NCBI GenBank assembly: GCA_026393335.1
Contig: JAPLAJ010000053.1
Location: forward strand, 13,521-77,520
DNA from: Rhodoluna sp.
GTDB taxonomy: Bacteria > Actinomycetota > Actinomycetes > Actinomycetales > Microbacteriaceae
DNA: 64,000 bases
Direction of reading: 5' to 3'
Numbering within the stretch: the first letter of the stretch is position 1; every line of letters begins with the position of its first letter. Below the pieces are notes generated by a model that had not been told where the DNA came from, searched no databases, and saw nothing but the letters and a program-made list of their open reading frames with translations. Shown piece by piece: positions 7,059 to 26,757 of this stretch. The position numbers and the translations under genes were made by a program.

Positions 7059-8909
7059 TTATGAGTTCGCTGGTAAGCGCCAAATGTTGATGGCTAGGGC
7101 TTCGCTAGGCAGAATGGCATTAGATCCTTCGAAGCGAATCTTGGCCCCTCCAAAGAGGTTCTCCGCTTGTTTTAGCCCATTGATGGACTCGATAGGGATT
7201 GCGGCGTTCTTCTCAGATCCGCGACTAGCAACTACCAAAATGCTCTGTTTTTTGTTCTCGCGAACATAAGCGATCAGTTCATCAGAGACGTAAACAAACC
7301 TCATTGAACCATCATGCAAAGCACTATTATCTTTACGGATCTTCGCAAAAGCCTGGTAGTCGGCCAACATGGTTAGGTCATTTGGTCGTTCGTTGTTCCA
7401 AGGGATAGGTGTTCTTGACTCCTCACCGTTACCGCCGTCAAGGCCAAATTCATCTCCAGCCCAGATAACCGGCATGCCTGGAAAAGTGAACTGCATGCCA
7501 GCAGCAACTCGCTGAGCGCCTGGAATAGTAAAGGACTTGAATCTAGGGATGTCGTGAGTATCCAAAGGATTCATGTTATGTAATCGCACATGCCACGGGA
7601 AACCGGCTGCAAAATCTAGGTGCTGTTTCACCATTTCTGTTCCGGTGATCTTGGTTCTACCAATACCTAAGAAGCCTGCTTCTGCTTTGACATCGGTGTT
7701 ATAGAACCAGCGCCAAACCGGCTTTGTGAAGTTGTAGTAGGTCATAGCCCCGTGCCAGCCTTCACCTTGAATTTGGTAGGCAGCGTCTCCAGTGTACTCA
7801 CCTAGAAGAATTGTGTTCTTGTTTATCTTCTGCATAGATTCACGAATAAGAACCTGAAGCTCCATATACATGTCTTCTTCACGGATACGGCCAGTCATGT
7901 TCGAAACATCGATACGCCAACCATCCATGTTAAAAGGTTTCTTAATCCACCTTGCAACAATGGAGTTCTTCCCAGAAATGAATTTCTTTCTAAGTTCCTT
8001 CGAATTCCAATTGAACTTAGGAAGGGATGGAACACCAAACCAGGCGTCATAGTCTTTGTTTTTATTACTGAAGTAGTAGAACTCAGATTCCTTAGCGCCA
8101 GGCTTCTTATAGGCAGCTTTGAACCATTCATGAGAATTGCCAGAGTGATTGCTGGTGAGGTCTCCGATTACTTTGAAACCTTTTTTATGAGCTGCTTCAA
8201 CAAGTTGAATAAGTGCCTTGTCTCCGCCAAGAAGTGGGTCGACTTCAGCAAAACTACTCGCGTCATACCTGTGATTCGATCGAGCTGGGAAAACTGGTGT
8301 CAAATAAATCAAAGTCACCCCAAGATCTTTTAGATGATCTAAGTGCTCGGTAATTCCGTAGATGTCCCCGCCGAAAAACTGTTCACTCGTGCCAGGACCT
8401 GTTGCAGTTACCTTATCGCCCCAACCTTTAGGGATAGCCCACTGAGGTGTCTTATGTTTATCTGCATGCGAAGATCTCGCGAAACGATCGGGAAAGATCT
8501 GATACATCACTGCACTCTTACCCCAGTCAGGAGCAGAGGAGAAAGTATTGATTCTGAAATCCTCAACATCAGGCTGTTCCAAGACGCTGATGCCCCTAGC
8601 GTTTAGCCAATAACTTGAACCATCCACCATTTCAATAAACCATCGATAGTTCATGTATGGGTTATGCATCACTATTTCTGATTCAAACCAAGACCAACCA
8701 TTTGCAGAAGAAAGCAGTTTTGCCGGTGGAGTTGGGAAAGCTTCGCCTGATTCACTGAAGCGAACTCGAACAGATTTAACCTTGCCGAAGCTCTTGTGAA
8801 TGCGGATGCGTAGCTTTACTTTCTCAAGTAACTTCGGTTTCTGATTAGGAACATACAAAGCCGAACCATCATGATGTGGCTGCAAAGCTAGAGGCAGGTT
8901 TAGGGCCAC
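7059..8909 (-). CDS. GH13 alpha-glycosidase with an N-terminal beta-sandwich domain (maltodextrin glucosidase/neopullulanase-like)
   Basis: GH13 conserved regions are present: DLTSNHSG, GWRIDVSNM and LDTHD. It is the last gene of the malEFG-like operon, with start/stop overlap at 8909. Confidence 0.88.
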   Translation of the reverse strand: MALNLPLALQPHHDGSALYVPNQKPKLLEKVKLRIRIHKSFGKVKSVRVRFSESGEAFPTPPAKLLSSANGWSWFESEIVMHNPYMNYRWFIEMVDGSSYWLNARGISVLEQPDVEDFRINTFSSAPDWGKSAVMYQIFPDRFARSSHADKHKTPQWAIPKGWGDKVTATGPGTSEQFFGGDIYGITEHLDHLKDLGVTLIYLTPVFPARSNHRYDASSFAEVDPLLGGDKALIQLVEAAHKKGFKVIGDLTSNHSGNSHEWFKAAYKKPGAKESEFYYFSNKNKDYDAWFGVPSLPKFNWNSKELRKKFISGKNSIVARWIKKPFNMDGWRIDVSNMTGRIREEDMYMELQVLIRESMQKINKNTILLGEYTGDAAYQIQGEGWHGAMTYYNFTKPVWRWFYNTDVKAEAGFLGIGRTKITGTEMVKQHLDFAAGFPWHVRLHNMNPLDTHDIPRFKSFTIPGAQRVAAGMQFTFPGMPVIWAGDEFGLDGGNGEESRTPIPWNNERPNDLTMLADYQAFAKIRKDNSALHDGSMRFVYVSDELIAYVRENKKQSILVVASRGSEKNAAIPIESINGLKQAENLFGGAKIRFEGSNAILPSEALAINIWRLPANS

Positions 8910-9766
8910 TAGCCTTTCACCGCACCAGCGGTTAGACCGTTAATGATGTACTTCTGCAGAGACAAGAACAGAATCACGATTGGCAAAGAAGTCAACAAAG
9001 AACCAGCTGCGAATGGGCCCCAGTTAGTTTCGAATTGTCCGCCGATGAAAGCACGTAAACCGACAGCAACTGTTTGCTGACTCGGATCAGTAAGGAACAG
9101 GGCTGCAAGAATGTACTCGTTGAAAATACCAATGAAGGTAAGCAAACAAACGACAGCCAAAACTGGTGATGCCAGAGGCATGAATATTCTCCAGTAAATC
9201 TGCATTGGGCTTGCTCCATCAACGCGAGCGGCTTCATCTAGTTCGATTGGAATCGAGTCCACGAATCCCTTCAACAGCCAAATGTTTACACCCATAGCTC
9301 CACCCAGATAAACAAGGATAAGTCCACCGATGGTGCCTAGTCCTAGGCCGGGTGCAAAAATTTGCACCCTCTCCATGATTGAATAAACGGCCGCCAGTGC
9401 TAGGACTGAAGGGAACATCTGAATCAATAGCAAAAGTTGAATTGAACCTTTCTTGCCCTTGAAGCGAAGGCGACTGAAGGCGAATGCAGAAGCTGCACCA
9501 ACGAATACAGAAAGCACTGAAACAATCAATGAGATCACAACTGAGTTAGACATCCAGGTATAGAAGGGAATCAGTGGATTGCTTAGCAATTCGTCAAAGT
9601 TTGACAGCGAGAAGCCGGTAGGTAAGAATGAGCCGACCTGCAAGGAAGTTGTTTTCTTGAACGAGGTCAGAACGATCATGTAAAGCGGGAAAAGTGCAAA
9701 GAAGCAAGCTGCCCACGCTACAGTATGACGCCAGCCTTTTGTGGTAAACCACTTAACGAAAATCAT
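8909..9766 (-). CDS. malG: Sugar ABC transporter permease (MalG-like)
   Basis: The 285-aa product has 6 hydrophobic segments and the EAA loop IELDEAARVDGASPMQIYWRIFMP. Confidence 0.88.
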   Translation of the reverse strand: MIFVKWFTTKGWRHTVAWAACFFALFPLYMIVLTSFKKTTSLQVGSFLPTGFSLSNFDELLSNPLIPFYTWMSNSVVISLIVSVLSVFVGAASAFAFSRLRFKGKKGSIQLLLLIQMFPSVLALAAVYSIMERVQIFAPGLGLGTIGGLILVYLGGAMGVNIWLLKGFVDSIPIELDEAARVDGASPMQIYWRIFMPLASPVLAVVCLLTFIGIFNEYILAALFLTDPSQQTVAVGLRAFIGGQFETNWGPFAAGSLLTSLPIVILFLSLQKYIINGLTAGAVKG

Positions 9767-11379
9767 GTGAAACTCTCCAATACCTTTGAACGTCTGATGC
9801 CGTAGAGCGAGATTGCTGCAACGGTAACGAAAATCACAATAGATACGGCGCTAGCCAGACCGAAGTTTTGATTGCCACCAGTATTAAAAGCAAGGTTATA
9901 GGTATAGCTGATCAAGATATCCGTTGCACCAGCAGAATCTCCGGCGAGCGTATCCCTAGGTCCACCACCGGTCAACAAATAGATCAGGTTGAAGTTGTTG
10001 AAATTGAATGCGAAAGAGGCAATCAACAAAGGTAGGAGCATTTGCTGAAGCAGCGGGAAGGTGATCTTCCTGAAAGCTTGGCCGCCGGTAGCTCCGTCGA
10101 TTGACGCCGCTTCGGTTAGTTCTTGAGGGATGGCCTGAAGTGCACCGGTGGAAATCAGGTAGAAGTAAGGGAAACCTAGCCAAAGGTTAACTAGCAAGAC
10201 TGAAATCTTAGCTAACGTTGGTTCACCCAGCCAGTTAAAGCTAACGGGTTGGCCGACTATCAAGCTGATTAGGTTATTGACAGCTCCGAAGTCGGTGTTC
10301 AACATACCACCCCAGATCAAGATGCTCATGATGCTAGGCATGGCGTAAGGCAAAATTAGAATGCTTCGATACACCCAACGACCTCTAATTTTGTGATTGA
10401 GAGTAAGCGCGATCAACAAACCAAGAGCGTACTGGGTTATCACAGTTGTGACGGCAAAAATAATGGTCCAAATAAACACTGCTATCAAAGGTTCGCGAAC
10501 TGATGGATTGTTTACAAGATCGATGAAGTTTTCAAGGCCGATAATCTCACGCCAGCCAGGGTACTTCATGTCCGCTGGGTCCTCGGTGTTAGCGTAGTTA
10601 CCTCTACCGTTGTCCTTGTATACAGCACCGGTCTTTATATCGGTAAAAGCATCGGTCTTAGCGTCGTAGGTAATTCGAGCGGCATACACAGCCATAACGC
10701 TGTAACCTTCAGCCCGCAGGAATGTGTTTGGTTGATTGTATTTGAAACGAGTGGAAGCTGTGGTCTTGTCGAAAGTCGCATACTCGTCATCATAGAAAGG
10801 TTCCCAAGTATATTTGGCCCCCACTTTTGTTACATCTGTCGGAATGCCAAGTACGTTAAAAACAATTCTGTCTTTTGGAAGAGGGGTAAAGGTTGTAGCG
10901 GTGCTCAGGAAATATATGTCATCTGGGTAGTAGCTGACTAAAGCACAAACCTTGGCGTTAGCCACATCTTTAGCGTCACCATATTCTTCGTCACACCAAC
11001 CAAGTTTTAGATCGAATTGTTTTTCGCCTGGGACCTGAGCGAAGGCATCGCTTTTTTGCAACATCTCGAGGGCTTCTGGCTTAGAAAGGACATTGCCTGT
11101 TCGGTACTGATAGCCAGACATTGAAATCGTGTAGATGATGGGGGTTATAACAAATGTTGCCAGCAGCAATATTCCTGGCAAGAAAAATTTCATTGGAATT
11201 GAAATCTTCGTAAAGTAAACAAGGGCGATTAGGACCATCGAGATTCCGAAGAAAATACCTATTTGGACATCGCCTGCAAGCAGTGAGGCTTGCATAAGGA
11301 ATCCAAGAACTGTCAAAGTGATGGTAACCAAAATGATCTTTAAAATCACTGCGATTCTTACACCTTTTAGTAGCCTCAT
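9763..11379 (-). CDS. malF: Sugar ABC transporter permease with a large extracytoplasmic loop (MalF-like)
   Basis: The 538-aa product has the EAA loop ELTEAASIDGATGGQAFRKITFP and a roughly 200-aa soluble insertion after TM3, as in MalF. Confidence 0.85.
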   Translation of the reverse strand: MRLLKGVRIAVILKIILVTITLTVLGFLMQASLLAGDVQIGIFFGISMVLIALVYFTKISIPMKFFLPGILLLATFVITPIIYTISMSGYQYRTGNVLSKPEALEMLQKSDAFAQVPGEKQFDLKLGWCDEEYGDAKDVANAKVCALVSYYPDDIYFLSTATTFTPLPKDRIVFNVLGIPTDVTKVGAKYTWEPFYDDEYATFDKTTASTRFKYNQPNTFLRAEGYSVMAVYAARITYDAKTDAFTDIKTGAVYKDNGRGNYANTEDPADMKYPGWREIIGLENFIDLVNNPSVREPLIAVFIWTIIFAVTTVITQYALGLLIALTLNHKIRGRWVYRSILILPYAMPSIMSILIWGGMLNTDFGAVNNLISLIVGQPVSFNWLGEPTLAKISVLLVNLWLGFPYFYLISTGALQAIPQELTEAASIDGATGGQAFRKITFPLLQQMLLPLLIASFAFNFNNFNLIYLLTGGGPRDTLAGDSAGATDILISYTYNLAFNTGGNQNFGLASAVSIVIFVTVAAISLYGIRRSKVLESFT

Positions 11380-11431
11380 TGGAACTCCCTTTTCAATTTC
11401 TATGACTGTTTGAAGATTTTGGTCTATTCAA

Positions 11432-11458
11432 AGGGGCCGGCGGTAACCGCCGGCCCCT
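11432..11458 (-). other. GC-rich intercistronic hairpin between malE-like and malF-like genes
   Basis: AGGGGCCGGCGG-TAA-CCGCCGGCCCCT forms a perfect 12-bp stem 23 nt after the malE-like stop. No clear T-run follows it. Confidence 0.6.
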
Positions 11459-11480
11459 CTGAACTAGAACCAGTGTAGCT

Positions 11481-12848
11481 TTAGTTGTTCTTGCTGTTAG
11501 CAGCGTTGGCTGCCATGATGTTAGCAAACAACTGTGAAGCAACTGTTGGGTCCTTGCGCTCTGCAGCATCGCTTGAAACCAATGCTGTCCAAAGTGCTGG
11601 TAGAGCCTCCCAGTAGTTAGGGATGTTTGCACCCTTAGTTCCTGGAATCGGCTTGCCCTTAGCATCCTTTGTTGTTGAAAGGACTAGACCAGTTGTGTCT
11701 TTAGCACCACCGTTTAGGAAAGTTCCTAGCTGAGGGATAGATGCCTTAGATGCAGCAGTTCCGAAGCCCTTTAGAGCTGGAGATGCAATTGCAGCAGCAG
11801 CCTTGTTTGCTGGTGGACGCTGTTCGTACTTCTGGTAGCTCATCGCACCTGAAGCTGATCCGAAGAAGTCATTCAAGAATGACTTCGCAGCGTTGTCGTC
11901 GCCACCTGCAGCAGCAAAGCTAGTTAGTAGAGCACCTGAAACTGAACCGAAGCCAGCTCCACATGAACCTACCTTGATACCAGGAACACAAGAGAGCTTC
12001 TTCATGTCGAAGCCTTCTTTTACGTAGTCTTTCCACTCCCAGTTACCAATAACTGCATAAGGAACCTTACCGTCGATAAAGTCTTGCTTGCAGTTAGCGT
12101 CGCTGTTTGTGAAGAATCCGTTAGGAGTTCCGTCGCTGTTTAGCAGTTGAGCCTTTACGTTGTCCGAGAAGGTCTTAACTGTAAATGGAGAACCGGTTGT
12201 CTTAGCGTTACCACCTGACATAGCGTAAGGTGCACCACCTAGAGCTGAAAGGATACCTGCGGCACCCCAACTCATTCCACCACCAGCAACACAAAGACCG
12301 CGGGTTAGACCCTCTGATACCTTGTTTGCCTTGTAGTAAGCAACCATTGCGCCGAAGCTGGTTGGTACGTCAGTTAGGTCATCGTTAGTCAACATGGCCA
12401 CGTTGTTGATGTCCAATGGAACACCGTATAGCTTGCCACCGTAGCTGAGGTCACCCAACTGGTTCTTAGTGAACTGCTTAGCTGCAGATGATGACAATGT
12501 GAATTGAGCTAGCTTGCCGTCCTTAGCAAGGGTTGGAACCCAGTCATTTGCACCCAGAACGATGTCTGGACCGCTGGCTGAAGTTGCGCTGTCAATTGCT
12601 GTCTTTAGTGCATCGAATCCTGAGTAACCAACGACTTTGATCTTGTAGCCCTGAACGTATTCGCTGACAGTCTGCTCTTCAAAGGTGCCGATAGCCTTGG
12701 TCAGGTTTCCTGAACGACTTTCGTCAGCCCAGATAGTAAGAGTCTTTGGTGGAACCTTTGATCTTGCGTCAGCAGGCAATGATGCCACGCCTGTTAGTAC
12801 AAGACCAAGTGCAACAGAAGCTCCTGCTACTTTCTTGATTGTAAACAT
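11481..12848 (-). CDS. malE: Extracellular solute-binding protein (maltose/maltodextrin-type). The start is revised from 12992 to ATG 12848.
   Basis: The internal Met gives the signal peptide MFTIKKVAGASVALGLVLTGVASLPADA and is preceded by GGAGA. The longer ORF-track N-terminus has no signal peptide and overlaps the operator region. Confidence 0.85.
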   Translation of the reverse strand: MFTIKKVAGASVALGLVLTGVASLPADARSKVPPKTLTIWADESRSGNLTKAIGTFEEQTVSEYVQGYKIKVVGYSGFDALKTAIDSATSASGPDIVLGANDWVPTLAKDGKLAQFTLSSSAAKQFTKNQLGDLSYGGKLYGVPLDINNVAMLTNDDLTDVPTSFGAMVAYYKANKVSEGLTRGLCVAGGGMSWGAAGILSALGGAPYAMSGGNAKTTGSPFTVKTFSDNVKAQLLNSDGTPNGFFTNSDANCKQDFIDGKVPYAVIGNWEWKDYVKEGFDMKKLSCVPGIKVGSCGAGFGSVSGALLTSFAAAGGDDNAAKSFLNDFFGSASGAMSYQKYEQRPPANKAAAAIASPALKGFGTAASKASIPQLGTFLNGGAKDTTGLVLSTTKDAKGKPIPGTKGANIPNYWEALPALWTALVSSDAAERKDPTVASQLFANIMAANAANSKNN

Positions 12849-12927
12849 GTAATCTCCATATCGATATTGAGTTAGCACGTTTGTGCTAGTACTAATGTAG
12901 TCAAATATTCCCTGTTTCATGGCATTC

Positions 12928-12941
12928 TGAAACCGCTTACA
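12928..12941. promoter_or_regulatory. LacI/cre-type operator (imperfect palindrome)
   Basis: TGAAACCGCTTACA fits TGWAANCGNTNWCA. It lies 80 nt upstream of the revised malE-like start. Confidence 0.55.
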
Positions 12942-13080
12942 CGATAACATTCTTGTAAACAAATTAGGAGTTCTTCGGACTAGTAGCCCCAATTCATAGA
13001 GCCCTGAGACAAAATCGCCTGCTTGTCTGTTTCAGAGGCCATTCGTTCTGGCCCATTTTTGCTTTCCAAAGCGATATTCA

Positions 13081-13145: not shown

Positions 13146-14873
13146 ATGGTTTCTTATACAAACGAAGTTCTTGTCCGCTCTAGAAAAGATGCTGAATGGT
13201 GGCGTAAAAGCGTTATCTATCAGATTTATCCTCGCTCCTTTGCCGACGGCAATGGCGATGGTATGGGCGATCTTCAGGGAGTAACTCAGAGACTTGAATC
13301 TCTAGCAGAGCTAGGCGTTGACGCCATCTGGTTCAGCCCATTCTTCACATCTCCCCAGAAGGATGCCGGTTACGACGTTTCCAACTACAAGGACATCGAT
13401 CCTCTTTTTGGGACCCTTGCTGACTTCGATGCTTTGGTTGCTAAGGCCAACACTCTTGGATTGAAAATCATTGTGGACCTAGTCCCAAACCACTCAAGCG
13501 ATCAACACGTCTGGTTCCAAGCAGCACTGAAGGCTGCCCCTGGTTCAGTTGAACGCAACCGTTACATCTTTAGAGATGGCAAGGGCGAGAATGGTGAACT
13601 TCCTCCTAACAACTGGGAATCTGTTTTCGGTGGCGCTGCCTGGAGTCGAATTACAGAAGCTGATGGCTCATTAGGCCAGTGGTACCTGCACATCTTTGAT
13701 TCATCCCAGCCGGATTTCAACTGGCAGAACGAAGAAGTGAGAGTTGAGTTTGATTCAGTATTGAGATTCTGGTTGGACAGAGGAGCAGCTGGCTTCCGTA
13801 TCGACGTAGCTCACGGCATGATCAAGGTTGATGGCCTACCTGATGTTGTTGCGAACAACTCAACAATGTCAGGCCAAGATTCACCTGATGCAATCAAAAC
13901 TAAAGAAACAGACGATGAGCTAATCGCTCGTCTACAAGTTGAGAATCCTTTCTGGGGTCAGAACGGTGTTCACGAAATCAACAAGAGATTCCGTGCCATC
14001 TTGGATGAGTATGACGACAGAGCAATGTGTGGTGAAGCATGGGTTCACCCACTATCAAGAATGGCCCGCTGGGTCAGACCTGGTGAATACCACCAGACAT
14101 TCAACTTCGGCTACCTAGAAACCCCTTGGGACAAAGACAAGCTACACAACGTGGTGACAGAGTCTCTAAAGGAATTCGGTGCCGTAGGCGCTCCATCAAC
14201 CTGGGTACTTTCAAACCACGATGTTATTCGTCACGCCACCAGAATGGCTTACGACCAGATCCCTAAACAAGGTGATGGCATCGGCCCTAAATATGAACAG
14301 CCTGATGAAGCTAAAGGTCTAAGAAGAGCAAGAGCAGCATCTGCTTTCATGCTAGGTCTACCTGGTGGTGCTTATATCTACCAAGGTGAAGAACTAGGTC
14401 TACCTGAGCACACCACTCTAGATAACAAGTTCCGTGAAGACCCAACCTTCTTTAGAACCAAAGGTGAGCGAGTTGGCCGTGACGGCTGCCGTGTTCCATT
14501 GCCTTGGGAAGCAGGAGCTAATGAAGCTAATGGTTTCTCAACCACAGGTAAGTCTTGGCTGCCTCAGCCATCTTCATACAAGAGATATGCCAGAAGTGAG
14601 CAAGAAGGTGCAGCTGGTTCAACCCTTGAGCTATACAAGCAGTTGCTCAAGAAGCGTAAGGCTCATGACATGGGTAACGGTGAATTCCGTTGGGCTCCTG
14701 AGTTCATGGATGAATCAACCCTTGCCTATATCAACAACGGAGTTCTAGTTCTATCAAACTTCAAAGGTGACCCAGTGGTCATTCCTGCTGGAGAGATCCT
14801 TGCAACAACTCAACACGATCTAACAATTGAAGGTGAGTTAGAGCACGACAACACAGTTTGGATAAGGTTGTAA
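13146..14873 (+). CDS. aglA: GH13 alpha-glucosidase / oligo-1,6-glucosidase family (paralog 1)
   Basis: The product contains WWRKSVIYQIYPRSFADGNGDGMGDLQG, DLVPNHSS, GFRIDVAHG, GEAW and SNHD. Confidence 0.9.
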   Translation: MVSYTNEVLVRSRKDAEWWRKSVIYQIYPRSFADGNGDGMGDLQGVTQRLESLAELGVDAIWFSPFFTSPQKDAGYDVSNYKDIDPLFGTLADFDALVAKANTLGLKIIVDLVPNHSSDQHVWFQAALKAAPGSVERNRYIFRDGKGENGELPPNNWESVFGGAAWSRITEADGSLGQWYLHIFDSSQPDFNWQNEEVRVEFDSVLRFWLDRGAAGFRIDVAHGMIKVDGLPDVVANNSTMSGQDSPDAIKTKETDDELIARLQVENPFWGQNGVHEINKRFRAILDEYDDRAMCGEAWVHPLSRMARWVRPGEYHQTFNFGYLETPWDKDKLHNVVTESLKEFGAVGAPSTWVLSNHDVIRHATRMAYDQIPKQGDGIGPKYEQPDEAKGLRRARAASAFMLGLPGGAYIYQGEELGLPEHTTLDNKFREDPTFFRTKGERVGRDGCRVPLPWEAGANEANGFSTTGKSWLPQPSSYKRYARSEQEGAAGSTLELYKQLLKKRKAHDMGNGEFRWAPEFMDESTLAYINNGVLVLSNFKGDPVVIPAGEILATTQHDLTIEGELEHDNTVWIRL

Positions 14874-14890: not shown

Positions 14891-14928
14891 AACAGAAGTG
14901 CCCGGCAAAGTTGCCGGGCACTTCTGTT
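14891..14928. terminator. Bidirectional intrinsic terminator between convergent genes
   Basis: AACAGAAGTGCCCGGCAA-AG-TTGCCGGGCACTTCTGTT forms a perfect 18-bp stem. T-rich flanks are present on both strands. Confidence 0.8.
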
Positions 14929-14940
14929 TAACTTATCGAT

Positions 14941-17900
14941 TTACCGTAGGGACTTGACCCAAGATGCGCCAGACTTTCCTAGCTTTCGTAACTGCTCTAG
15001 TCGAACAGCTATCCAAACCATCACACCTGCAATCAAGAGCAGGATTACCCATAGGAACCAGCTCTCCCTAGCAATTGGTTGGAATGCATAAGGCAATACA
15101 CCAACAAGCACACCAACAAGGCCTGGGAAGAATAGACCACCGAGTGATCTAAGTGAACCAACTACTAACAACGTAATAGTTGCGGCCATCAGGATTCCGA
15201 ATCTCCACCAGTCCACTCGAGTAAGTGAAGAGTCTCCAATAGAGGTGAATGTTAGGAACAGAGATGGGCCTAGGGCAACAACAGATGGAATACCTAGATA
15301 CAGGTAGCTGGTGTCAGGTAGCTTGTTGATGCTTCGCAAACCACCTAGGAATAAGAACAGGAATAACGAGATACCTAGCGCTCTAATAGCAACTGTTGTT
15401 TCGTAGTCCGAACTTTGTGCAGCGCTTGCCCAAGTAATTGGAACTAGCAATAGGGAAAGTGATGCACCACCAGCGAGGGCAGTACCTAAGTTTCCATTTC
15501 TAATACCAAGCAATAGACAAGCAAGGGCAATTAGCAACACAGTAACTATTCGAATGATCTGGGTTGGGTTAGTTAGCTGAAGCGAAGTGTCTAGCGTTGT
15601 GTAGGTATAAATCACTGATGGAAGTACCAAAGTGAATATTGGTAAACCATAGGTGAAGATAGTGGACTTGAATTCCAAGACCTTCTTTAGGTTTCTATTG
15701 CCAAGAGCAATTGCACCTGCGGCACCGATACCAAACAGTTCTGGGCCATCAAGTAGATCAGGAGCTAATACCTCAACTAGTTGAGCTAATGAAAGTCCTA
15801 GACCTAGAAGACCCGCGTACTCCAAACCTGCCCAAAGCTTGCCCTGGTTCTTTGAGAATCTGAACCATGAGTAACCAGCAAGGATTGCAGTTGATGCAAC
15901 CAAGCGATAAACAGTTGAAGCATCATCAATGTTCTGAGACAAGGAGTATAGAACCGATGCTGCAACTGGTAGTAGCAGTGGCACATCCATACCCATAAGT
16001 CTCTTCAGGCCCTGAGGTGCTGCTGCATTGAATAATGTAGGCAGTGCTGCAGCTATCGCCAATGGAACTGTGTAGAGCTCAAGGTTGAACTTATCCAGGT
16101 CAATTGAGTCACGAAGTAATTGGCTTGTAGTCAAAGCAATAGTTACAGGAGCTAGGTAGCTAAGTGCAAACCAGCCGTTTGTGCTGTTTGCCTTTGCTTT
16201 GCTGGCAATCTGCAATTGTCTAAAGACAATAATTGCGAATACTGCTGAAACGAAAATCTGTCTTCCGCCAACTAGGTTTTCAGATCCATACTTCAGATTC
16301 ATGTCCTCATCGAGTGCGAAACTAGCCACTGTTGCATAGGCCAGCAACATGTAGCCAAGTCCTGCAACACGAAGTGCAATACCGGCATTTCCAGATCCAA
16401 ATTTTGCTAGCTCAGCCAAGGTTGCTGCAAGTGCTGCAACTAGAACAAGAATTAGCAATCCCCATAAGATATCTCCAGAATTACTTGGCTTAGTCCATTC
16501 TGAATAGTTGATTGCAAATGAGCTAACTGAAAGTGCAAACACACTTACCAGTGAGAAGTAGCTGGTGTATCTTCCAGCAACTCTCTTATCAACAATTCGA
16601 AGCACGTAGTTCAAAGCAAGTGCAGCAACAATCACAAGTGCTAGGTGTGCTGAGATTAGTAGGTCTTCTCGTAGCCAAGTAGCAAAGGCTACTAAGCTTG
16701 CAAGAGAGGATCCGTAAGCCAACCAAACAGAGATCTTGTTTTTGCCAATCCAAGCCATTGCATAGTTCAAAGCGGCAAGGCCCATCAAGATTGATGCTGG
16801 GTAGAGCAAGTCATCAACACTCTTGGTTGTAGCAAGCATTCCAAAGGCCAGGATGGCTTGGAAGGAGTAGCTGTATCGCAGCAATAGAGAACTTACCAAC
16901 TGCATTTTCTTCGCCAGAAGAGTTGCAGCCAGTCCAGCAACTACTGCACTTCCACCGGTTACTGCGGATAGATAAAGGCTGTCGGCTGGAGAGCTAGCGA
17001 AGTTGCTAGGCACAGTAATGACGAAAGCAACTGCCGTGGTGAGTATGTGTATGAGAATCTGGGATCCAAAGTCCAACTCTCTGCCTAACTTGCGATTCAC
17101 CAGTGCTGTTATCGGTGAATAAACAACAGCCAGGGCAATCACTGCCAAGCTAATCAGCGCATGCTCTAGAGATAGTGGGTTGTAATCACCATCTAGAACA
17201 ATCCTCACAGTTAGCAATGCCACACCTGCGAAGTGAAGAACGCTGGCAACTCGAACAGAGCTTCGAGGCACGCCCAACCAACTTTGGTAAAGCATTGAAG
17301 AAGCAAATGCAATCAGTAGCAGTGACATTCCAACAAGGAAGTCGTTAAGGTTTGTACCGTCTGCATACCAAAGAATCCAAGATCCTGCCAAAGCTACCTG
17401 GGCAGTGACTACTGCAATTGAGAATTCAGCAAATCTCTTAATATTGAATCCCACTCCGACAACTACAAACATCAGCGAGATGGTTCCGAACAGTCCAGAC
17501 CAGTAACTCTCGCTGACACCAAAGGCCAACCATGAGCCAAGAGCTAGAGAAACTGTTGTGAATGTGAATAGGTGCAGCCAATTGTTTACACGCTTGACTG
17601 AACTTTCCTCATCACTACTTACAGCAGTAAACCAAATCGACTTGGTGGCCAAGGCAAGAATTGTTACAGCTGCAAACGCAGAGAATGAAACCGGCTCAGG
17701 TGCAACACCGAATGTAAGCCCACTAGTAATAGGCCATTGGAGGGCAAAGATAGCAAATGCAGATGAGATGAAGAATGTGAGAGTCTTTAGCGCAACATTC
17801 TCACGCTTAGCAAGGTCCTTCTCGTAATCGAGATCAGGTGTGCCCTTGTCAATTGCAAACTGCATCTTGCCAATTTGCTTACTTGCCAAAGCAATTAGGA

Positions 17901-18951
17901 TACCGGTGAGACCAAGAGCTGCAGCCATCCAACCGAAAGAAGAACTTCTAAATTCAAACCTGCTTCCAAGATCTCCTATTGCATAAACTGCTCCAGCCGT
18001 AGCTAGTGCAACTATAGAAATAATCTTCCAACCAAAGTTTGCTTTGAATCTTGCCAAGACAAATGATGCAGCAGCAACAATAGAAAGATCAAGTGCCCAG
18101 AACCAAGCTGGTGCAGTTTCCCAAGTAAATGTTGGGCTTGAAATATCTCCAGTTACCAGAATTGCAAACATCAACATCGCTGAGGAGAATGTGGCCATAA
18201 AATTTGCCAACATCACTGAGAACTTTCTTCCCCAGAAAGCTAGTAGGCCAGTAACAATCGCAACACCTAGTGTTACAGCTAAGAATCCTGGCTCCTTCAA
18301 GGTGTTCAAGTTTGTTGAAACGAAAATGCTTCCAGCAATCACGATGATTGCGCTAGCACCCATAATCAACCACTGCTGAAGTGAAAGAGACTTTCTTTCT
18401 TTTCTTACCTGCTTCACTTGAGGAGCTGGTGCAGCTGCAGTTTGAGCGGATTGTGTTGCTACCACAGGTGCACCTGCGTTTGTAGCTGAAATGAGTCTTT
18501 GTCGAACAGACATCAAATCTCTTTCGATTCGAAGATAGCTATCGCTCAAGGTTTGATAATCAAGGAGGTCTCTAGTCTTGAAGGTAAACCCACAAGGACA
18601 AGTAACTGATGTCTTTCCCTTTAGATCCTCAGCATTGAAACTGTGCTGACAGACTGTGGTTGGTAGCTCTCCCCCAGATGAAGCAACTGCTGTAGGGGCA
18701 GCCACTCGAGGGGCAACCTGAGCAACTGGTGCAACAGGAATTTGAGTTTGACTTAGTGCCTGGTTCTTCTTGTTGTTCCTAATGATCAGCACTATTCCAA
18801 CAATTACGGCTCCTAGAACAAAAAGTGAGCCGCCGCCGCCGCCTCCTAGAAATAGCAGACTGAGAAGCGATGGAAGTACGATCACAGCTGCGACTATTGA
18901 GCCACAGGTGATTGCGACGATTTTGCCAGCACTGGCAGGTTGTTTGGCCAT
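14941..18951 (-). CDS. Giant polytopic membrane protein of unknown function (1336 aa)
   Basis: It is an uninterrupted ORF. The N-terminus has 2 TM helices around a G6 tract, followed by a roughly 130-aa soluble module with C-x-H...C-x-C. After that, hydrophobic helices run almost continuously to the C-terminus. No catalytic motif was recognised. Confidence 0.8.
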   Translation of the reverse strand: MAKQPASAGKIVAITCGSIVAAVIVLPSLLSLLFLGGGGGGSLFVLGAVIVGIVLIIRNNKKNQALSQTQIPVAPVAQVAPRVAAPTAVASSGGELPTTVCQHSFNAEDLKGKTSVTCPCGFTFKTRDLLDYQTLSDSYLRIERDLMSVRQRLISATNAGAPVVATQSAQTAAAPAPQVKQVRKERKSLSLQQWLIMGASAIIVIAGSIFVSTNLNTLKEPGFLAVTLGVAIVTGLLAFWGRKFSVMLANFMATFSSAMLMFAILVTGDISSPTFTWETAPAWFWALDLSIVAAASFVLARFKANFGWKIISIVALATAGAVYAIGDLGSRFEFRSSSFGWMAAALGLTGILIALASKQIGKMQFAIDKGTPDLDYEKDLAKRENVALKTLTFFISSAFAIFALQWPITSGLTFGVAPEPVSFSAFAAVTILALATKSIWFTAVSSDEESSVKRVNNWLHLFTFTTVSLALGSWLAFGVSESYWSGLFGTISLMFVVVGVGFNIKRFAEFSIAVVTAQVALAGSWILWYADGTNLNDFLVGMSLLLIAFASSMLYQSWLGVPRSSVRVASVLHFAGVALLTVRIVLDGDYNPLSLEHALISLAVIALAVVYSPITALVNRKLGRELDFGSQILIHILTTAVAFVITVPSNFASSPADSLYLSAVTGGSAVVAGLAATLLAKKMQLVSSLLLRYSYSFQAILAFGMLATTKSVDDLLYPASILMGLAALNYAMAWIGKNKISVWLAYGSSLASLVAFATWLREDLLISAHLALVIVAALALNYVLRIVDKRVAGRYTSYFSLVSVFALSVSSFAINYSEWTKPSNSGDILWGLLILVLVAALAATLAELAKFGSGNAGIALRVAGLGYMLLAYATVASFALDEDMNLKYGSENLVGGRQIFVSAVFAIIVFRQLQIASKAKANSTNGWFALSYLAPVTIALTTSQLLRDSIDLDKFNLELYTVPLAIAAALPTLFNAAAPQGLKRLMGMDVPLLLPVAASVLYSLSQNIDDASTVYRLVASTAILAGYSWFRFSKNQGKLWAGLEYAGLLGLGLSLAQLVEVLAPDLLDGPELFGIGAAGAIALGNRNLKKVLEFKSTIFTYGLPIFTLVLPSVIYTYTTLDTSLQLTNPTQIIRIVTVLLIALACLLLGIRNGNLGTALAGGASLSLLLVPITWASAAQSSDYETTVAIRALGISLFLFLFLGGLRSINKLPDTSYLYLGIPSVVALGPSLFLTFTSIGDSSLTRVDWWRFGILMAATITLLVVGSLRSLGGLFFPGLVGVLVGVLPYAFQPIARESWFLWVILLLIAGVMVWIAVRLEQLRKLGKSGASWVKSLR

Positions 18952-19024
18952 TATTTCCCCCTTTTGGAAAGTCTTATTGCCATATTAGTAACACTTAACG
19001 AAGGTCTGGAGATAAAAAGTGCTT

Positions 19025-19121: not shown

Positions 19122-20828
19122 ATGTGTGAGCCTATTATCAAGGTTATGGAGTTCTTCAGCGCTGTGAGCCACGCGGCTAGCAAACAAGCTGATTGGTGGC
19201 GCTCAGCAGTTATCTACCAGGTATACCCAAGATCATTTGCCGATGGCAATGGCGATGGGATGGGAGATATAAAGGGAATAACTTCAAGACTTGATTCACT
19301 AGCGTCTTTAGGTATAGATGCCATATGGCTCTCCCCTTTCATGCCTTCACCTCAAAAGGATGCCGGCTATGACGTATCTGATTACAAAGGTGTTGACCCA
19401 TTATTTGGAACACTTGATGACTTTGATCTGATGCTCACAAGAGCTCATGAACTAGGCCTCAAGATTCTGGTTGACCTTGTTCCTAATCACTCAAGTGATC
19501 ACCACAAATGGTTTCAGGCTGCATTGAACTCACCCGAGGGTTCACCTGAACGAGAGTTCTATCACTTCAAAGATGGCAATGGAGAATTGCCTCCTAATAA
19601 CTGGGTATCTATGTTTGGTGGTCCTGCATGGACAAGAATCACTAACCCTGATGGAACATTAGGTCAGTGGTATTGCCACCTGTTTGATTCTTCACAACCT
19701 GATCTCAACTGGGAGAACCCAAAGGTCCAAGAAGCTTTTGAAGATATTCTTCGCTTCTGGTTAGACAGAGGCGTTGATGGCTTCAGAGTAGATCAACCAC
19801 ACGCCATGGCTAAAGCTAAAGGTTTACCTGATCATCCATATGTTGATAGAGCAGGTGCTGGCTTTATTGAAGGGGAAGAGAATCCTCCGATGTGGTTCCA
19901 AGATTCTGTGCACACCATCTTTAGAAGATGGCGTGACATCCTTGAGAGCTATCCAGGTGAGCGAGTGATGTGTGGTGAAGCATATGTGCTTCCTCTTGAC
20001 TTCATGGCTCTATGGGTTAGACCAGATGAGTTCCATCAGACATTTAACTTTAGATATCTAGATTCACTATGGACTGCAGATTCAATCTTCAAAACCATAA
20101 ATGAGTCATACAAAGCATTTGATTCTGTTGGAGCACCTAGCACCTGGGTGCTCTCTAATCACGACGTAATTAGACATGCTTCGAGGCTTGGCGGAGATTA
20201 CGGTCGATCAACCGCTTCAGATGGCATTGGACCTAAGGACCCTCAACCAGATAACGAGTTGGGACTAGCCAAGGCAAGAGCAGCCACACTATTCACTCTT
20301 GCTCTACCTGGTTCTATGTATCTCTATCAGGGAGAAGAGCTCGGTCTTCCTGAACACACAACTCTAGAAGATGAGTTCAGACAAGACCCGACCTTCTTTA
20401 GAACCAATGGCACAAGAGTTGGTAGAGACGGTTGTCGAGTTCCACTGCCTTGGGAAGCAGGAGCTAACGATTCCAATGGGTTCTCTTCAACTGGTAAGGC
20501 TTGGTTACCTCAACCAGAGATCTATAAGAATTATTCAAGAAACCTCCAAGAGGGAGTAACTGGCTCAACACTTGAAATGTATAAACAAGCCCTAGCAATC
20601 AGGAAGGAACTTGACCTAGGTCAGGGTTCTTTCGAATGGGTTCAAGAACTTTGTAGCTCAGATGTTCTTGCTTTTAGAAACAAAGAGATTCTTGTAATTC
20701 ACAACTTTGGTCACAACTTTGGCAATAAGCCATTAGAAATACAAAACAAGACTTTGATTATTTCGAGCTCTGCTGAAACCTCAGCTGGCTTGGTGCAACC
20801 AAACGAAACTGTTTGGTTAACGAACTAA
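19122..20828 (+). CDS. GH13 alpha-glucosidase family (paralog 2). An alternative start is ATG 19146.
   Basis: It carries the same GH13 regions as paralog 1 (VIYQVYPRSFADGNGDGMGDIKG, DLVPNHSS, GFRVDQPHA, SNHD). Long peptide blocks are shared with 13146..14873. Confidence 0.9.
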   Translation: MCEPIIKVMEFFSAVSHAASKQADWWRSAVIYQVYPRSFADGNGDGMGDIKGITSRLDSLASLGIDAIWLSPFMPSPQKDAGYDVSDYKGVDPLFGTLDDFDLMLTRAHELGLKILVDLVPNHSSDHHKWFQAALNSPEGSPEREFYHFKDGNGELPPNNWVSMFGGPAWTRITNPDGTLGQWYCHLFDSSQPDLNWENPKVQEAFEDILRFWLDRGVDGFRVDQPHAMAKAKGLPDHPYVDRAGAGFIEGEENPPMWFQDSVHTIFRRWRDILESYPGERVMCGEAYVLPLDFMALWVRPDEFHQTFNFRYLDSLWTADSIFKTINESYKAFDSVGAPSTWVLSNHDVIRHASRLGGDYGRSTASDGIGPKDPQPDNELGLAKARAATLFTLALPGSMYLYQGEELGLPEHTTLEDEFRQDPTFFRTNGTRVGRDGCRVPLPWEAGANDSNGFSSTGKAWLPQPEIYKNYSRNLQEGVTGSTLEMYKQALAIRKELDLGQGSFEWVQELCSSDVLAFRNKEILVIHNFGHNFGNKPLEIQNKTLIISSSAETSAGLVQPNETVWLTN

Positions 20829-21226
20829 TACTTTTCTAGTAGTTCGAAGTAAGCACACACAACCATCGACTCTGGTTTGACTTCATGGCCGCAGCCTTCC
20901 CAGAATGCTCTGTGGCTTCTCCTGAAGTCATCCCCGCTGAGATCTCCTTCCGCTTCAGCCAGAGCAAACTCATCTGAAACTTCATCAAACTGCACCACAT
21001 CTACTCTTGTGATTTGAATTTTGCCAACAGGCTGGTTCTCGTTTCCAACAAGAATGAAGATTTCACCAACACTTTCAACTGGCTCATCCTCGTCGTAGTC
21101 GTATTCCAGCATGCCGGCTGTGGCCCGCTTATTTCCGTTGAAGACGAAATCCAGAAGCCTGTCTCTCATCTCAGCGCCATCACCGAACTCAAGAAGTCTG
21201 TGTCCATCAATGCGTTCAACTGTCAT
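20825..21226 (-). CDS. ASCH (PUA-like) domain protein
   Basis: The 133-aa product contains NGNKRATAG and later ALAEAEGD...FRRSHRAFW, typical of ASCH domain proteins. Confidence 0.7.
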   Translation of the reverse strand: MTVERIDGHRLLEFGDGAEMRDRLLDFVFNGNKRATAGMLEYDYDEDEPVESVGEIFILVGNENQPVGKIQITRVDVVQFDEVSDEFALAEAEGDLSGDDFRRSHRAFWEGCGHEVKPESMVVCAYFELLEKY

Positions 21227-21297
21227 ATCTAAATGCTACAAAACTTAAAGCCGTAGTCTTTAATTGAATTAGTACCAAAACCCTAGACGAGAGCATC

Positions 21298-21759
21298 ATG
21301 ACACCTAAGAAACTATTCAATACCTTTGCTAAAGCCGAAGCAGTTACCTGGACACTACTTATAACTGCACTGATTCTTAGGGCTACAGGTTTTGACCCAG
21401 TAGCTGTCGCTATTGCTGGAAGCATCCACGGTGCTGTGTTCCTAGGTTATGCAGTGACCGCAGCATTGACAGGTGTGAACCAAAGATGGGGATTTGGTAA
21501 GACAACTCTTGCAGTTGCTTTGGCAATTGTTCCTTATGCAACTATTCCTTTTGAGATAAGAGTTGCCAAGAACGGTTCTCTTGACGGATCTTGGCGAACA
21601 GAAGTAAGTGAAGACCCAAGAGATAAGGGATTCATTGACAGATTGTTCCGCTGGTTCATTGCAAGACCAGTAATTCTGGTTGTTGTTATTGTGGTTGGCC
21701 TTACAGCCTTGTTCTCTTTACTGGTAACCCTGGGCCCACCGAATGAATGGTTCGACTAG
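21298..21759 (+). CDS. DUF3817-family membrane protein
   Basis: FAKAEAVTWTLLITALILR...GSIHGAVFLGYAV is the pattern seen in DUF3817. Four hydrophobic segments are present. Confidence 0.65.
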   Translation: MTPKKLFNTFAKAEAVTWTLLITALILRATGFDPVAVAIAGSIHGAVFLGYAVTAALTGVNQRWGFGKTTLAVALAIVPYATIPFEIRVAKNGSLDGSWRTEVSEDPRDKGFIDRLFRWFIARPVILVVVIVVGLTALFSLLVTLGPPNEWFD

Positions 21760-25734: not shown

Positions 25735-26757
25735 GTGGCAGGCATCGTAGATGTTGCTCGTGAGGCTGGGGTCTCAACAGCAACTGTTTCAAGAGCACTA
25801 AGTGGTAAAGATTATGTCTCTATTGAGACCAAGGAACTAGTTCAGTCAGTAGCTGACCGTTTGGGCTATGTGCCTTCGGCTTCTGCATACACGCTGGTGA
25901 CAGGTAGAACTAAGAACATTGGTGTTGTAGTTCCTTATGTTGACCGCTGGTTCTTCTCAACTGTTCTTGAAGCTATCGATAGAGAGCTAGTCAAGGCTGG
26001 CTATGACGTTACTTTGTATAACCTCTCCTCAGGTGATGATCACCGTAAGTCAATCTTCACTAAGTCTTTGCCTCGTAAGAGAGTGGACGCTGTTATCTGT
26101 GTTTCAGTGAAGATGAGTGAAGAAGAGATCTCTGCATTAACAAGAGTGAACAAGCCACTGGTATCTCTAGGTGGTTTGATCAAGGGTGCTAAGACCATCA
26201 GGATCAATGACACAGCAGCTGGAGCATTGGCTACCAACCACCTCTTGTCTATGGGTCATACCCGTATCGCCATGATTGGTCAGAGTGAATCTACCGATAA
26301 CTTCTATGGAGTCTTCGATGTTAGAAAGGTTGCTTACGAAGCAGCCTTGAAAGAAGCAGGCATTGAACCTAGACCTGGTTGGTATAGAGCAGTTCCTAGA
26401 TATGCAATTAGCGAAGGATACGCTGCTGCCAAGAATCTTCTAGGTGATCCACACAATGCACCAACAGCTATCTTTGCCTCTTCTGATGAATTGGCTGTAG
26501 GAGTATTGCTTGCTGCTAAAGACCTAGGTCTCAATGTCCCAGCAGACCTATCTATTGTCGGGGTGGATAACCACGAATTAGCTGAGTTCTTTGGAATCAC
26601 AACAATCAACCAGAATGTTGTTGGCCAAGGTGAACTATTGGCTAAGACCATGCTTGATTTACTGGATAACCCAGAGCAGAAGGTGCCTGAAATAACAGAA
26701 TGGCCTATTGAACTCATTGTCCGATCCAGCACATCAAGAGCCCCATCTCAGGCTTAG
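25735..26757 (+). CDS. LacI-family transcriptional regulator (GTG start)
   Basis: The N-terminal HTH is IVDVAREAGVSTATVSRALSG. A periplasmic-binding-protein-like sugar-binding core follows. Confidence 0.9.
   Translation: MAGIVDVAREAGVSTATVSRALSGKDYVSIETKELVQSVADRLGYVPSASAYTLVTGRTKNIGVVVPYVDRWFFSTVLEAIDRELVKAGYDVTLYNLSSGDDHRKSIFTKSLPRKRVDAVICVSVKMSEEEISALTRVNKPLVSLGGLIKGAKTIRINDTAAGALATNHLLSMGHTRIAMIGQSESTDNFYGVFDVRKVAYEAALKEAGIEPRPGWYRAVPRYAISEGYAAAKNLLGDPHNAPTAIFASSDELAVGVLLAAKDLGLNVPADLSIVGVDNHELAEFFGITTINQNVVGQGELLAKTMLDLLDNPEQKVPEITEWPIELIVRSSTSRAPSQA

Follow-up and report, generated by a model that had tools for sequence, protein, structure and literature searches.

The window analyzed here, a stretch of 64,000 nucleotides from Rhodoluna sp. 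(NCBI GenBank assembly GCA_026393335.1, contig JAPLAJ010000053.1, positions 13,521 to 77,520 of the forward strand), carries on its minus strand a gene for a membrane protein of 1336 amino acids (aa), which a preliminary description, made from the letters alone, had singled out as the largest intact open reading frame (ORF) present. We examined the topology, relatives, divergence and genomic setting of this gene, and the results point to an enlarged member of a named but uncharacterized actinobacterial superfamily, built in part from tandem copies of a four-helix cassette.

The ORF is indeed the longest in the window (the runners-up encode 1223 and 1214 aa), and its product is composed of 15% leucine, 13% alanine, 9.5% serine and 8.6% valine, with only 12% charged residues. 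A GC-rich hairpin (-33.6 kcal/mol, z = -8.45 vs shuffles) lies 14 nt beyond the stop codon, in agreement with the strong terminator that had been described, and because it is located between the membrane-protein gene and a convergent gene of the GH13 family, it is probably a bidirectional intrinsic terminator common to both. On the opposite side, in a 170-nt spacer shared with a divergent GH13 gene, a scan with a sigma-70 consensus that is not tuned for actinobacteria returned zero minus-strand sites. No second copy (paralogue) of the membrane-protein gene was found in the window. Two short ORFs, one of 111 aa on the opposite strand within the large gene (18044-18379, plus strand) and one of 104 aa inside or antisense to an annotated gene (14434-14748, plus strand), are most likely spurious. 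The features discussed below are collected in Table 1.

Table 1. Coordinates of the membrane-protein gene, its parts and selected neighboring genes (positions of the window; TM, transmembrane)
Feature	Position	Strand	Remarks
Coding sequence of giant membrane protein	14941..18951	-	Complete, 1336 aa + stop, ATG start; predicted 40-TM, N-in/C-in
Ribosome-binding site AAGGGGGA	18956..18963	-	5 nt 5' of ATG; GGGGG Shine-Dalgarno; read from sequence
N-terminal TM hairpin	18781..18912	-	aa 14-57, poly-Gly outer turn; from hydropathy and alignment of relatives
Cytosolic module	18370..18780	-	aa 58-194; zinc knuckle, helix, linker, K/R-rich stretch
Zinc-knuckle-like motif C101-x-H103-x14-C118-x-C120-G	18577..18657	-	From family alignment; AlphaFold2 beta-hairpin
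First conserved TM block	17947..18384	-	aa 190-335; QQWL, LANFMATFSSAM, RFKANFGWK; DUF2157-like by transitive and profile-profile evidence
Poorly conserved polytopic middle	16333..17946	-	aa 336-873, ~19 TM helices
4-TM cassette copy 1	16027..16332	-	aa 874-975; partial match to cassette profile
4-TM cassette copy 2	15682..16005	-	aa 983-1090; canonical 'DVPLL ... YRL ... GPELF' unit, extra copies in relatives
4-TM cassette copy 3	15337..15666	-	aa 1096-1205
4-TM cassette copy 4	15004..15312	-	aa 1214-1316; best conserved part: VDWWRF, GGLFFPGL, LPYAF, WFLW
NCBIfam NF047321 SCO7613_CTERM match	14944..15360	-	aa 1198-1336, including K/R-rich cytosolic tail
Perfect 17-bp GC-rich hairpin	14891..14928	both	Between convergent GH13 gene and membrane-protein gene
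GH13 alpha-amylase-family genes	7059-8909, 13146-14873, 19122-20828		Three within 14 kb
Maltodextrin-type ABC importer	8909-12992		
LacI regulator	25735-26757		

Topology, domain plan and family membership

In a Kyte-Doolittle hydropathy profile (19-residue window) the protein shows 36 hydrophobic peaks, and an AlphaFold2 model of aa 186-1336, computed from an 11-sequence alignment (mean pLDDT 74.8, pTM 0.49), consists of 38 helices and no other secondary structure. Together with two N-terminal helices this gives a predicted total of 40 transmembrane (TM) segments with both termini in the cytoplasm (N-in/C-in), in keeping with the dozens of helices seen in the preliminary description. The N-in/C-in model is supported because lysine and arginine residues (K+R) are biased toward the inside: if the N-terminus is placed in the cytoplasm, 68 of them fall in inside loops and 11 in outside loops, a ratio that is still 51 to 11 after omitting the long cytosolic module, and acidic residues show the opposite trend (26 inside, 34 outside). 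Loops measure 3-25 aa throughout, with the sole exception of aa 58-194, a cytosolic stretch of 137 aa between TM2 and TM3; those on the outer side measure 3-16 aa, the first outer loop of the TM core being the 8-aa NLNTLKEP.

AlphaFold modeling followed by Foldseek, as had been proposed for this protein, yielded an all-helical model without a characterized structural match. Against the PDB, nothing was retrieved for the 1151-aa model at E<=1e-3 (TM-scores <=0.15), and the top matches were TPR/HEAT-type solenoids and designed helical repeat proteins at a TM-score of ~0.1, which is not meaningful; against BFVD there was no match, and for a model of the N-terminal part the best E value against the PDB was 0.17 (TM-scores <=0.37). 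As judged from these models, the protein has no characterized structural relative within the PDB and BFVD searches, and the solenoid-like matches appear to reflect merely a long series of antiparallel helix hairpins.

The N-terminal TM hairpin is limited to the Rhodoluna-type clade, and distant relatives and short proteins begin with the zinc knuckle of the cytosolic module. In this module the knuckle gives way to a long helix (aa ~126-159), then to a linker that is disordered and rich in Ala/Pro, and finally, directly before TM3, to a stretch rich in K/R; a separate AlphaFold2 model of aa 90-334 (pLDDT 78) contains short beta elements near the CPC pair, a long helix, a disordered linker and TM helices. 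The residues C101, H103, C118 and C120 belong to a motif that is invariant or nearly so in the family and aligns with that of short DUF2157/SCO7613_CTERM proteins, and they form a putative metal (zinc) site. Relatives P0049 and P0054 are without the CxH...CxC motif and keep the remainder of the protein, which suggests that the knuckle is dispensable in some lineages. Conservation peaks at aa 200-300 and at aa 1200-1336. The DUF2157-like block accounts for about 5 of the 40 helices, and the middle region has only 15-34% identity to distant relatives per 50-residue bin, with a conserved cytosolic amphipathic stretch, EYEKDLAKRE (aa 376-384), within its otherwise variable sequence.

A word-indexed search gathered 59 relatives, all unnamed or 'hypothetical', from Rhodoluna, Micrococcales or Actinomycetota metagenome bins, and an exhaustive HMMER search of 1.84 billion cluster representatives with a profile of the TM region returned only 81 proteins at E<=1e-3; the full-length family is therefore narrow. 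It is well supported that the gene is a genuine, vertically inherited one of freshwater Microbacteriaceae of the Rhodoluna/'Luna' type, and a tblastn search against PLSDB plasmids gave no match. The HMMER scans of Pfam and NCBIfam suggested in the preliminary description assigned the protein to no characterized family. Pfam gave 0 matches at E<=1, and a PDB sequence search and PADLOC were likewise empty, which agrees with its being described as having no recognizable catalytic domain. The sole NCBIfam signal was SCO7613_CTERM (NF047321) at 28.1 bits (E = 1.4e-06), below the curated cutoff of 45. This match places aa 1198-1336 of 1336 on model positions 59-188 of 188, in register to the last residue, and takes in, at the extreme C-terminus as the domain requires, the final 4 TM helices and a tail rich in K/R. 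The same family is also matched by 25 of the 33 close and medium relatives and by 13 of the 25 distant ones, with large relatives scoring 17-29 bits, below the cutoff; the short (~620 aa) relatives P0125 (51.9 bits) and P0128 (73.1 bits) pass it.

Such ~620-aa proteins were the weakest matches of the exhaustive search, in which P0125 (2.7e-11) and P0128 (9.1e-07) matched on profile positions 1004-1146. P0125 also passes the gathering score of Pfam DUF2157 (PF09925; 35.3 vs 32.4 bits), P0096, P0102 and P0122, scanned individually, reach 22-27 bits and so stay under it, and DUF2157 is matched in the first TM block by 9 of the 25 distant relatives. When the family profile was aligned to the short proteins with hhalign, query 818-1336 fell on template 106-624 over ~500 columns (99.1% probability, E = 7e-19), and a second alignment, of query 97-674 with P0125 8-555 (98.7% probability, E = 1.9e-16), spans the zinc knuckle and the first TM block. 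Query ~190-330 was placed by hhalign on P0125 81-222, overlapping the Pfam DUF2157 match of P0125 at 50-197. From these two alignments, the 1336-aa protein is very probably a lengthened, roughly doubled DUF2157 + SCO7613_CTERM protein, and it is well supported that the basic superfamily form, of ~620 aa, opens on the cytosolic side with a CxH...CxC zinc knuckle and a helix, continues with a TM block of the DUF2157 type and ends in an SCO7613-type C-terminal TM domain.

The SCO7613-type resemblance suggested in the preliminary description was therefore right in substance (a sub-threshold score, 25 of 33 relatives, and a 99% profile-profile link to the short proteins), while the DUF2339 type mentioned beside it found no backing, PF10101 having no match in the query (E<=1) or in 58 relatives (E<=0.01). 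With SCO7613-type proteins the window protein shares a C-terminal match of ~140 aa that runs to the last residue, and both are actinobacterial multi-pass proteins without soluble domains; it is set apart from the recognized members by a score below the curated threshold (28.1 vs 45 bits), by twice the size (1336 aa vs ~620 aa of the short relatives), by extra copies of an amplified 4-TM cassette and by the added N-terminal TM hairpin. The superfamily is thus one already named but uncharacterized, and the 1336-aa protein is no artifact and matches no characterized system.

The cassettes were mapped in an internal-repeat test, which the preliminary description had named and which was done here with a cassette hidden Markov model (HMM) and hhalign; four tandem copies were found in the C-terminal third. 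The HMM, built from motif-anchored single units and iterated with reversed sequences as decoys, gave four in-register copies with 0 decoy matches in every round, and recovered copy 3 (E = 3e-4) and copy 4 (E = 1.9e-9) before their inclusion in the model. Independently, hhalign aligned aa 1076-1200 with aa 1201-1336 (94.5%). In the aligned copies helix 1 begins with (D/G)-x-P, an Arg stands close to the beginning of helix 2, the cytoplasmic turn is basic, and helix 3 is rich in Gly; copy 4 is the core of the SCO7613_CTERM match. Upstream of aa ~870, neither the cassette profile nor pairwise segment hhalign (best 47-65% probability) gave convincing copies, and homology of the cassette to the DUF2157-like block found no support in hhalign (0.2-7%).

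Copy number varies among relatives, as in P0031, P0032, P0054, P0059 and P0068. The 'D-x-P-x-L ... GPELY' unit is single in the window protein and occurs in 2-3 motif-defined copies in relatives, and cassette copy number accounts for the length classes of 1336, ~1473 and ~1590 aa. Counted instead by matches to the profile of the ~113-aa cassette, there are up to six copies in relatives vs four in the window protein, with classes of ~1336, 1473, 1590 and 1700 aa. That the protein grew to 40 TM helices partly via tandem duplication of a four-helix cassette of ~100-115 aa is well supported.

Divergence and genomic setting

The reading frames of the orthologues were intact in all 21 of the 21 examined, and hence the interruption in close strains that had been named as possible counterevidence is not seen. 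The ratio of nonsynonymous to synonymous substitution rates (dN/dS) is 0.12-0.20 vs five syntenic relatives, which clearly points to net purifying selection; the flanking enzymes have values of 0.04-0.09, i.e. the gene lies 2-4 times higher. The important role proposed in the preliminary description is thereby favored by the intact frames and the low dN/dS, and disfavored by the fact that this is the fastest-diverging gene of the neighborhood. Its protein identity is 56-61% where the HrpA and GH13 neighbors reach 87-97%. HrpA and the GH13 gene upstream have a nucleotide identity of 0.85-0.90 to the related loci L006 and L002; exactly at the 5' end of the membrane-protein gene the identity drops, to 0.53-0.70 within the gene. 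In L006 the synonymous rate (dS) of the gene, 1.70, also exceeds that of these two flanking genes (0.55-0.76). Compared with the closest relative, L001, nucleotide identity is 90-97% over most of the gene, and only 70-84% in a mosaic patch (~16200-17100) that lies mostly in the middle region and reaches ~130 nt into cassette 1.

Among close relatives conservation is lowest in the predicted outer loops, which score 0.55 where inner loops and TM cores score 0.68, and within the middle region the values are 0.40 for outer loops vs 0.56 for inner loops and 0.58 for TM cores. As far as sequence comparison goes, this divergence agrees with the replacement of alleles, or with mosaic recombination, at a locus that evolves fast. 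Diversifying selection is not thereby proven, since low constraint is common in the outer loops of membrane proteins and the distant pairs have nearly saturated dS.

The two GH13 genes that flank the membrane-protein gene are paralogues of ~570 aa (about 57-59% identity), and nearby are a maltodextrin-type ATP-binding cassette (ABC) system, a third GH13 gene, ASCH, DUF3817, HrpA and a LacI regulator. The context was compared by means of a tblastn panel over 56 related loci. In relatives of at least ~32% identity the convergent downstream GH13 gene is kept and the upstream side is variable, with a branched-chain amino-acid ABC system in P0031. In ~30%-identity relatives the gene follows a block of recG-coaD-rsmD-citrate synthase-aminotransferase-ferredoxin-PIG-L and is itself followed by FTR1 and/or BipA, and GH13 is not adjacent; this housekeeping position is seen at L029, L031, L032, L042, L043, L046-L048 and L051-L054. 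From the distinct position of the distant orthologues, it appears that the lineage of the window has seen either a move of the gene or a rearrangement of the region. PIG-L, ferredoxin, FTR1 and BipA were sought in the window and are absent, the only match being an unrelated aminotransferase (25% identity). Because of the housekeeping setting without GH13 in these relatives, the sugar context carries no defensible functional information: a conserved functional coupling to the GH13/maltodextrin genes is rejected, and the weight that the preliminary description had given to the carbohydrate neighborhood does not hold. The membrane-protein gene appears monocistronic at every locus.

Candidate functions

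The 1336-aa protein is apparently neither an enzyme nor a classical transporter. As the best explanation of the whole, we tentatively propose an expanded DUF2157/SCO7613-type protein that acts as a non-catalytic membrane platform. The array of TM-helix hairpins would be its working part, forming a large membrane-embedded platform for the cytoplasmic membrane or its lipids, with the conserved first and last TM blocks as functional or assembly core. The cytosolic zinc-knuckle/helix module may be where a cytoplasmic partner, or a further copy of the protein, makes contact, and the weakly constrained middle would be mainly a hydrophobic spacer, its short outer loops being free, or driven, to vary. 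How the platform would work is a more doubtful matter, and by analogy the TM array might organize, buffer or protect the bilayer in which it is embedded. An envelope-integrity role analogous to that of Arc3A/LiaI-type proteins is favored. The envelope scaffold, membrane reservoir and polymer export put forward in the preliminary description are guesses.

An earlier study unified DUF2157 with the LiaI-LiaF 4-TM domain, which belongs to an envelope-stress system (PMC11237479). The first TM block of the window protein (aa ~190-335) aligns, profile to profile, with the DUF2157 region of P0125; it differs from the LiaI-LiaF system in having no LiaF-type C-terminal 'Toastrack' domain in the Pfam scan, and liaRS and LiaH/pspA-like neighbors were not seen in the window or at six related loci. 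Arc3A (P. aeruginosa PA5114, DUF2339) has 35 TM helices and no catalytic residues, and its function is linked by its authors to the number and density of TM helices; it is the main P. aeruginosa defense against the Tle3 phospholipase and prevents lysophospholipid build-up (PMC8926400). TM number varies between homologues in the DUF2339 proteins, which are also found in Gram-positive phyla (PMC8926400). The likeness to the window protein is one of resemblance and not of homology: both are very large, dense polytopic proteins (35 vs 40 predicted TM helices) that lack soluble domains and catalytic residues, but the window protein has no Arc3B partner, and Arc3A, as far as described, has no zinc-knuckle module. 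The construction principle also recalls the Piezo channels of eukaryotes, which have ~38-40 TM helices from tandem four-helix units together with a pore module and large extracellular cap domains. The window protein is unrelated to these in sequence and kingdom, has neither pore module nor cap domains, and gave no structural match to them in Foldseek.

Several points weigh against the platform explanation. The query stays under the curated score of every family, DUF2157 (PF09925) has no match in the protein itself at E<=1, so that the link to this family is transitive only, and the global confidence of the AlphaFold model is modest (pTM 0.49). A conserved operon partner, e.g. a PspA/LiaH-like gene, was not seen in the window or at the six related loci. 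The platform function is reached by inference, and its Arc3A part is pure analogy, with no detectable DUF2339 homology. In addition, helix 2 of each cassette has a conserved Arg close to where its outer end is predicted, and D/E, P and W residues are conserved as well; these could mark a binding path for a substrate or ion, in which case a passive platform would be less fitting than a transporter or flippase.

To our knowledge, it is rare for a protein to consist of ~40 TM helices without any further domain, and hardly any such protein has a known mechanism. Arc3A is the sole functional precedent found in the literature searched, with its own mode of action unsolved. The gene studied here takes up ~4 kb of an apparently small, streamlined freshwater actinobacterial genome and is intact in each relative examined. 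It is relevant to both giant polytopic proteins and freshwater actinobacterial microdiversity. An anonymous superfamily, DUF2157/SCO7613_CTERM, gains a domain plan (zinc knuckle, DUF2157 block, cassettes), and its natural series from short (~620 aa) to giant (~1700 aa) proteins could be used to probe the effect of TM-helix number.

The main rival, to which we give a low but real chance, is a translocator of a lipid or lipid-linked polymer, one that flips or exports lipoglycan, phospholipid or a polyprenyl-linked precursor, and polymer export was also among the suggestions of the preliminary description. It is no more probable that each 4-TM cassette would form, from its conserved Arg, Asp/Glu and Trp, an outer-leaflet headgroup-binding site. 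The invariant or near-invariant residues R1016, R1134, R1190, R1250, D1247-W-W and P1070-E1071 occupy matching places in the cassettes, close to where the outer interface is predicted and contrary to the positive-inside trend, as such a site would have it, and a gene of the PIG-L deacetylase family adjoins the distant orthologues. That adjacency, however, is divergent, part of the housekeeping block, and lost in the clade of the window; an energy-coupling partner or domain is absent, Pfam and NCBIfam gave no MOP/Wzx, MurJ, RND/MmpL, ABC or MFS signal, and transporter matches of the N-terminal model in Foldseek were insignificant (E>=0.47, TM-scores <=0.32). As known families, MFS, RND/MmpL, MOP and ABC permeases were rejected on the same grounds of no Pfam/NCBIfam match and nothing significant in Foldseek.

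It is likewise improbable, though worth weighing, that the protein matters chiefly as an exposed surface target (for instance of a toxin, or as the receptor of a phage or predator), a housekeeping membrane role accounting for its retention and its outer loops being pushed to diversify, with recombination exchanging alleles; this reading may be compatible with both platform and translocator mechanisms. The divergence described above agrees with it in each respect: the fall in nucleotide identity in L006 and L002 that coincides exactly with the start of the gene, the low protein identity relative to HrpA and GH13, the raised dS in L006, the mosaic patch against the closest relative and the weak conservation of the predicted outer loops, both overall and in the middle region. 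Against it stand the overall dN/dS, indicative of net purifying selection, the shortness of the outer loops (3-16 aa), which lie beneath the cell wall, the laxity of outer loops common among membrane proteins anyway, and the near-saturated dS of distant pairs. If the hypervariability does reflect phage or toxin pressure, the locus would be useful as a population marker in lake time series.

Rather unlikely is a further reading, in which the protein would stand for a distinct bacterial class, the 'membrane solenoid': an array of four-helix cassettes, amplified as repeats, would function by its sheer bulk in the bilayer, and recombination together with frequency-dependent selection would keep its outer face hypervariable. 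Lipids might then, to give examples that are just as speculative, be sequestered or shielded from phospholipases, phage or membrane-active toxins. If true, the protein would be an independently arisen actinobacterial counterpart of Arc3A, and the locus would mark arms races between strains of freshwater bacterioplankton.

Very improbable is a GT-C-type glycosyltransferase or Emb/PimE-like envelope enzyme, which would suit a large, polytopic, actinobacterial protein encoded near carbohydrate genes; GT-C enzymes are disfavored to the point of exclusion because there is no large outer loop (extracytoplasmic loops of <=16 aa are too small for a catalytic loop or C-terminal domain), and family HMM matches in Pfam and NCBIfam and structural matches in Foldseek are absent, and the sugar context is not conserved among relatives. 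A PHA synthase-like enzyme, finally, as proposed for the namesake SCO7613 of Streptomyces coelicolor (reported as 81.9 kDa) from a GASAG lipase-box-like motif and ~41% less polyhydroxyalkanoate (PHA) by spectrophotometry in a deletion mutant, an effect that its authors allow to be indirect (PMC8313934), can be dismissed for practical purposes, since G-x-[SC]-x-G is absent from the whole 1336-aa protein, Pfam gave no alpha/beta-hydrolase or PhaC match, and the all-helical, membrane-embedded prediction leaves a soluble part too small for a hydrolase fold. PhaC identity is thereby effectively refuted, and the SCO7613 family is one without established function, the PhaC claim for SCO7613 resting on weak evidence.

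Further observations at related loci

Two of the related loci, L017 and L026, both come from one metagenome-assembled genome, WBA_1B_040, and carry two versions of the gene that overlap at query residues 1114-1265 with 34% and 58% identity; they are either two paralogues of one genome or the product of a mixed-strain bin. Locus L006 (CAMDEE010000001.1) is titled 'Auritidibacter sp. Marseille-P8566', and its HrpA, DUF3817, ASCH and GH13 proteins are 92-97% identical to those of the window, which otherwise groups with Rhodoluna-type bins; the taxonomic label of this bin looks doubtful. A second small variable site of the neighborhood is the ASCH gene (20825-21226; spot 20650-21450), which is missing or replaced in L002, L004, L007 and L010, where tblastn gave no hit, and at this spot nucleotide identity to L002 is only 0.23-0.36.

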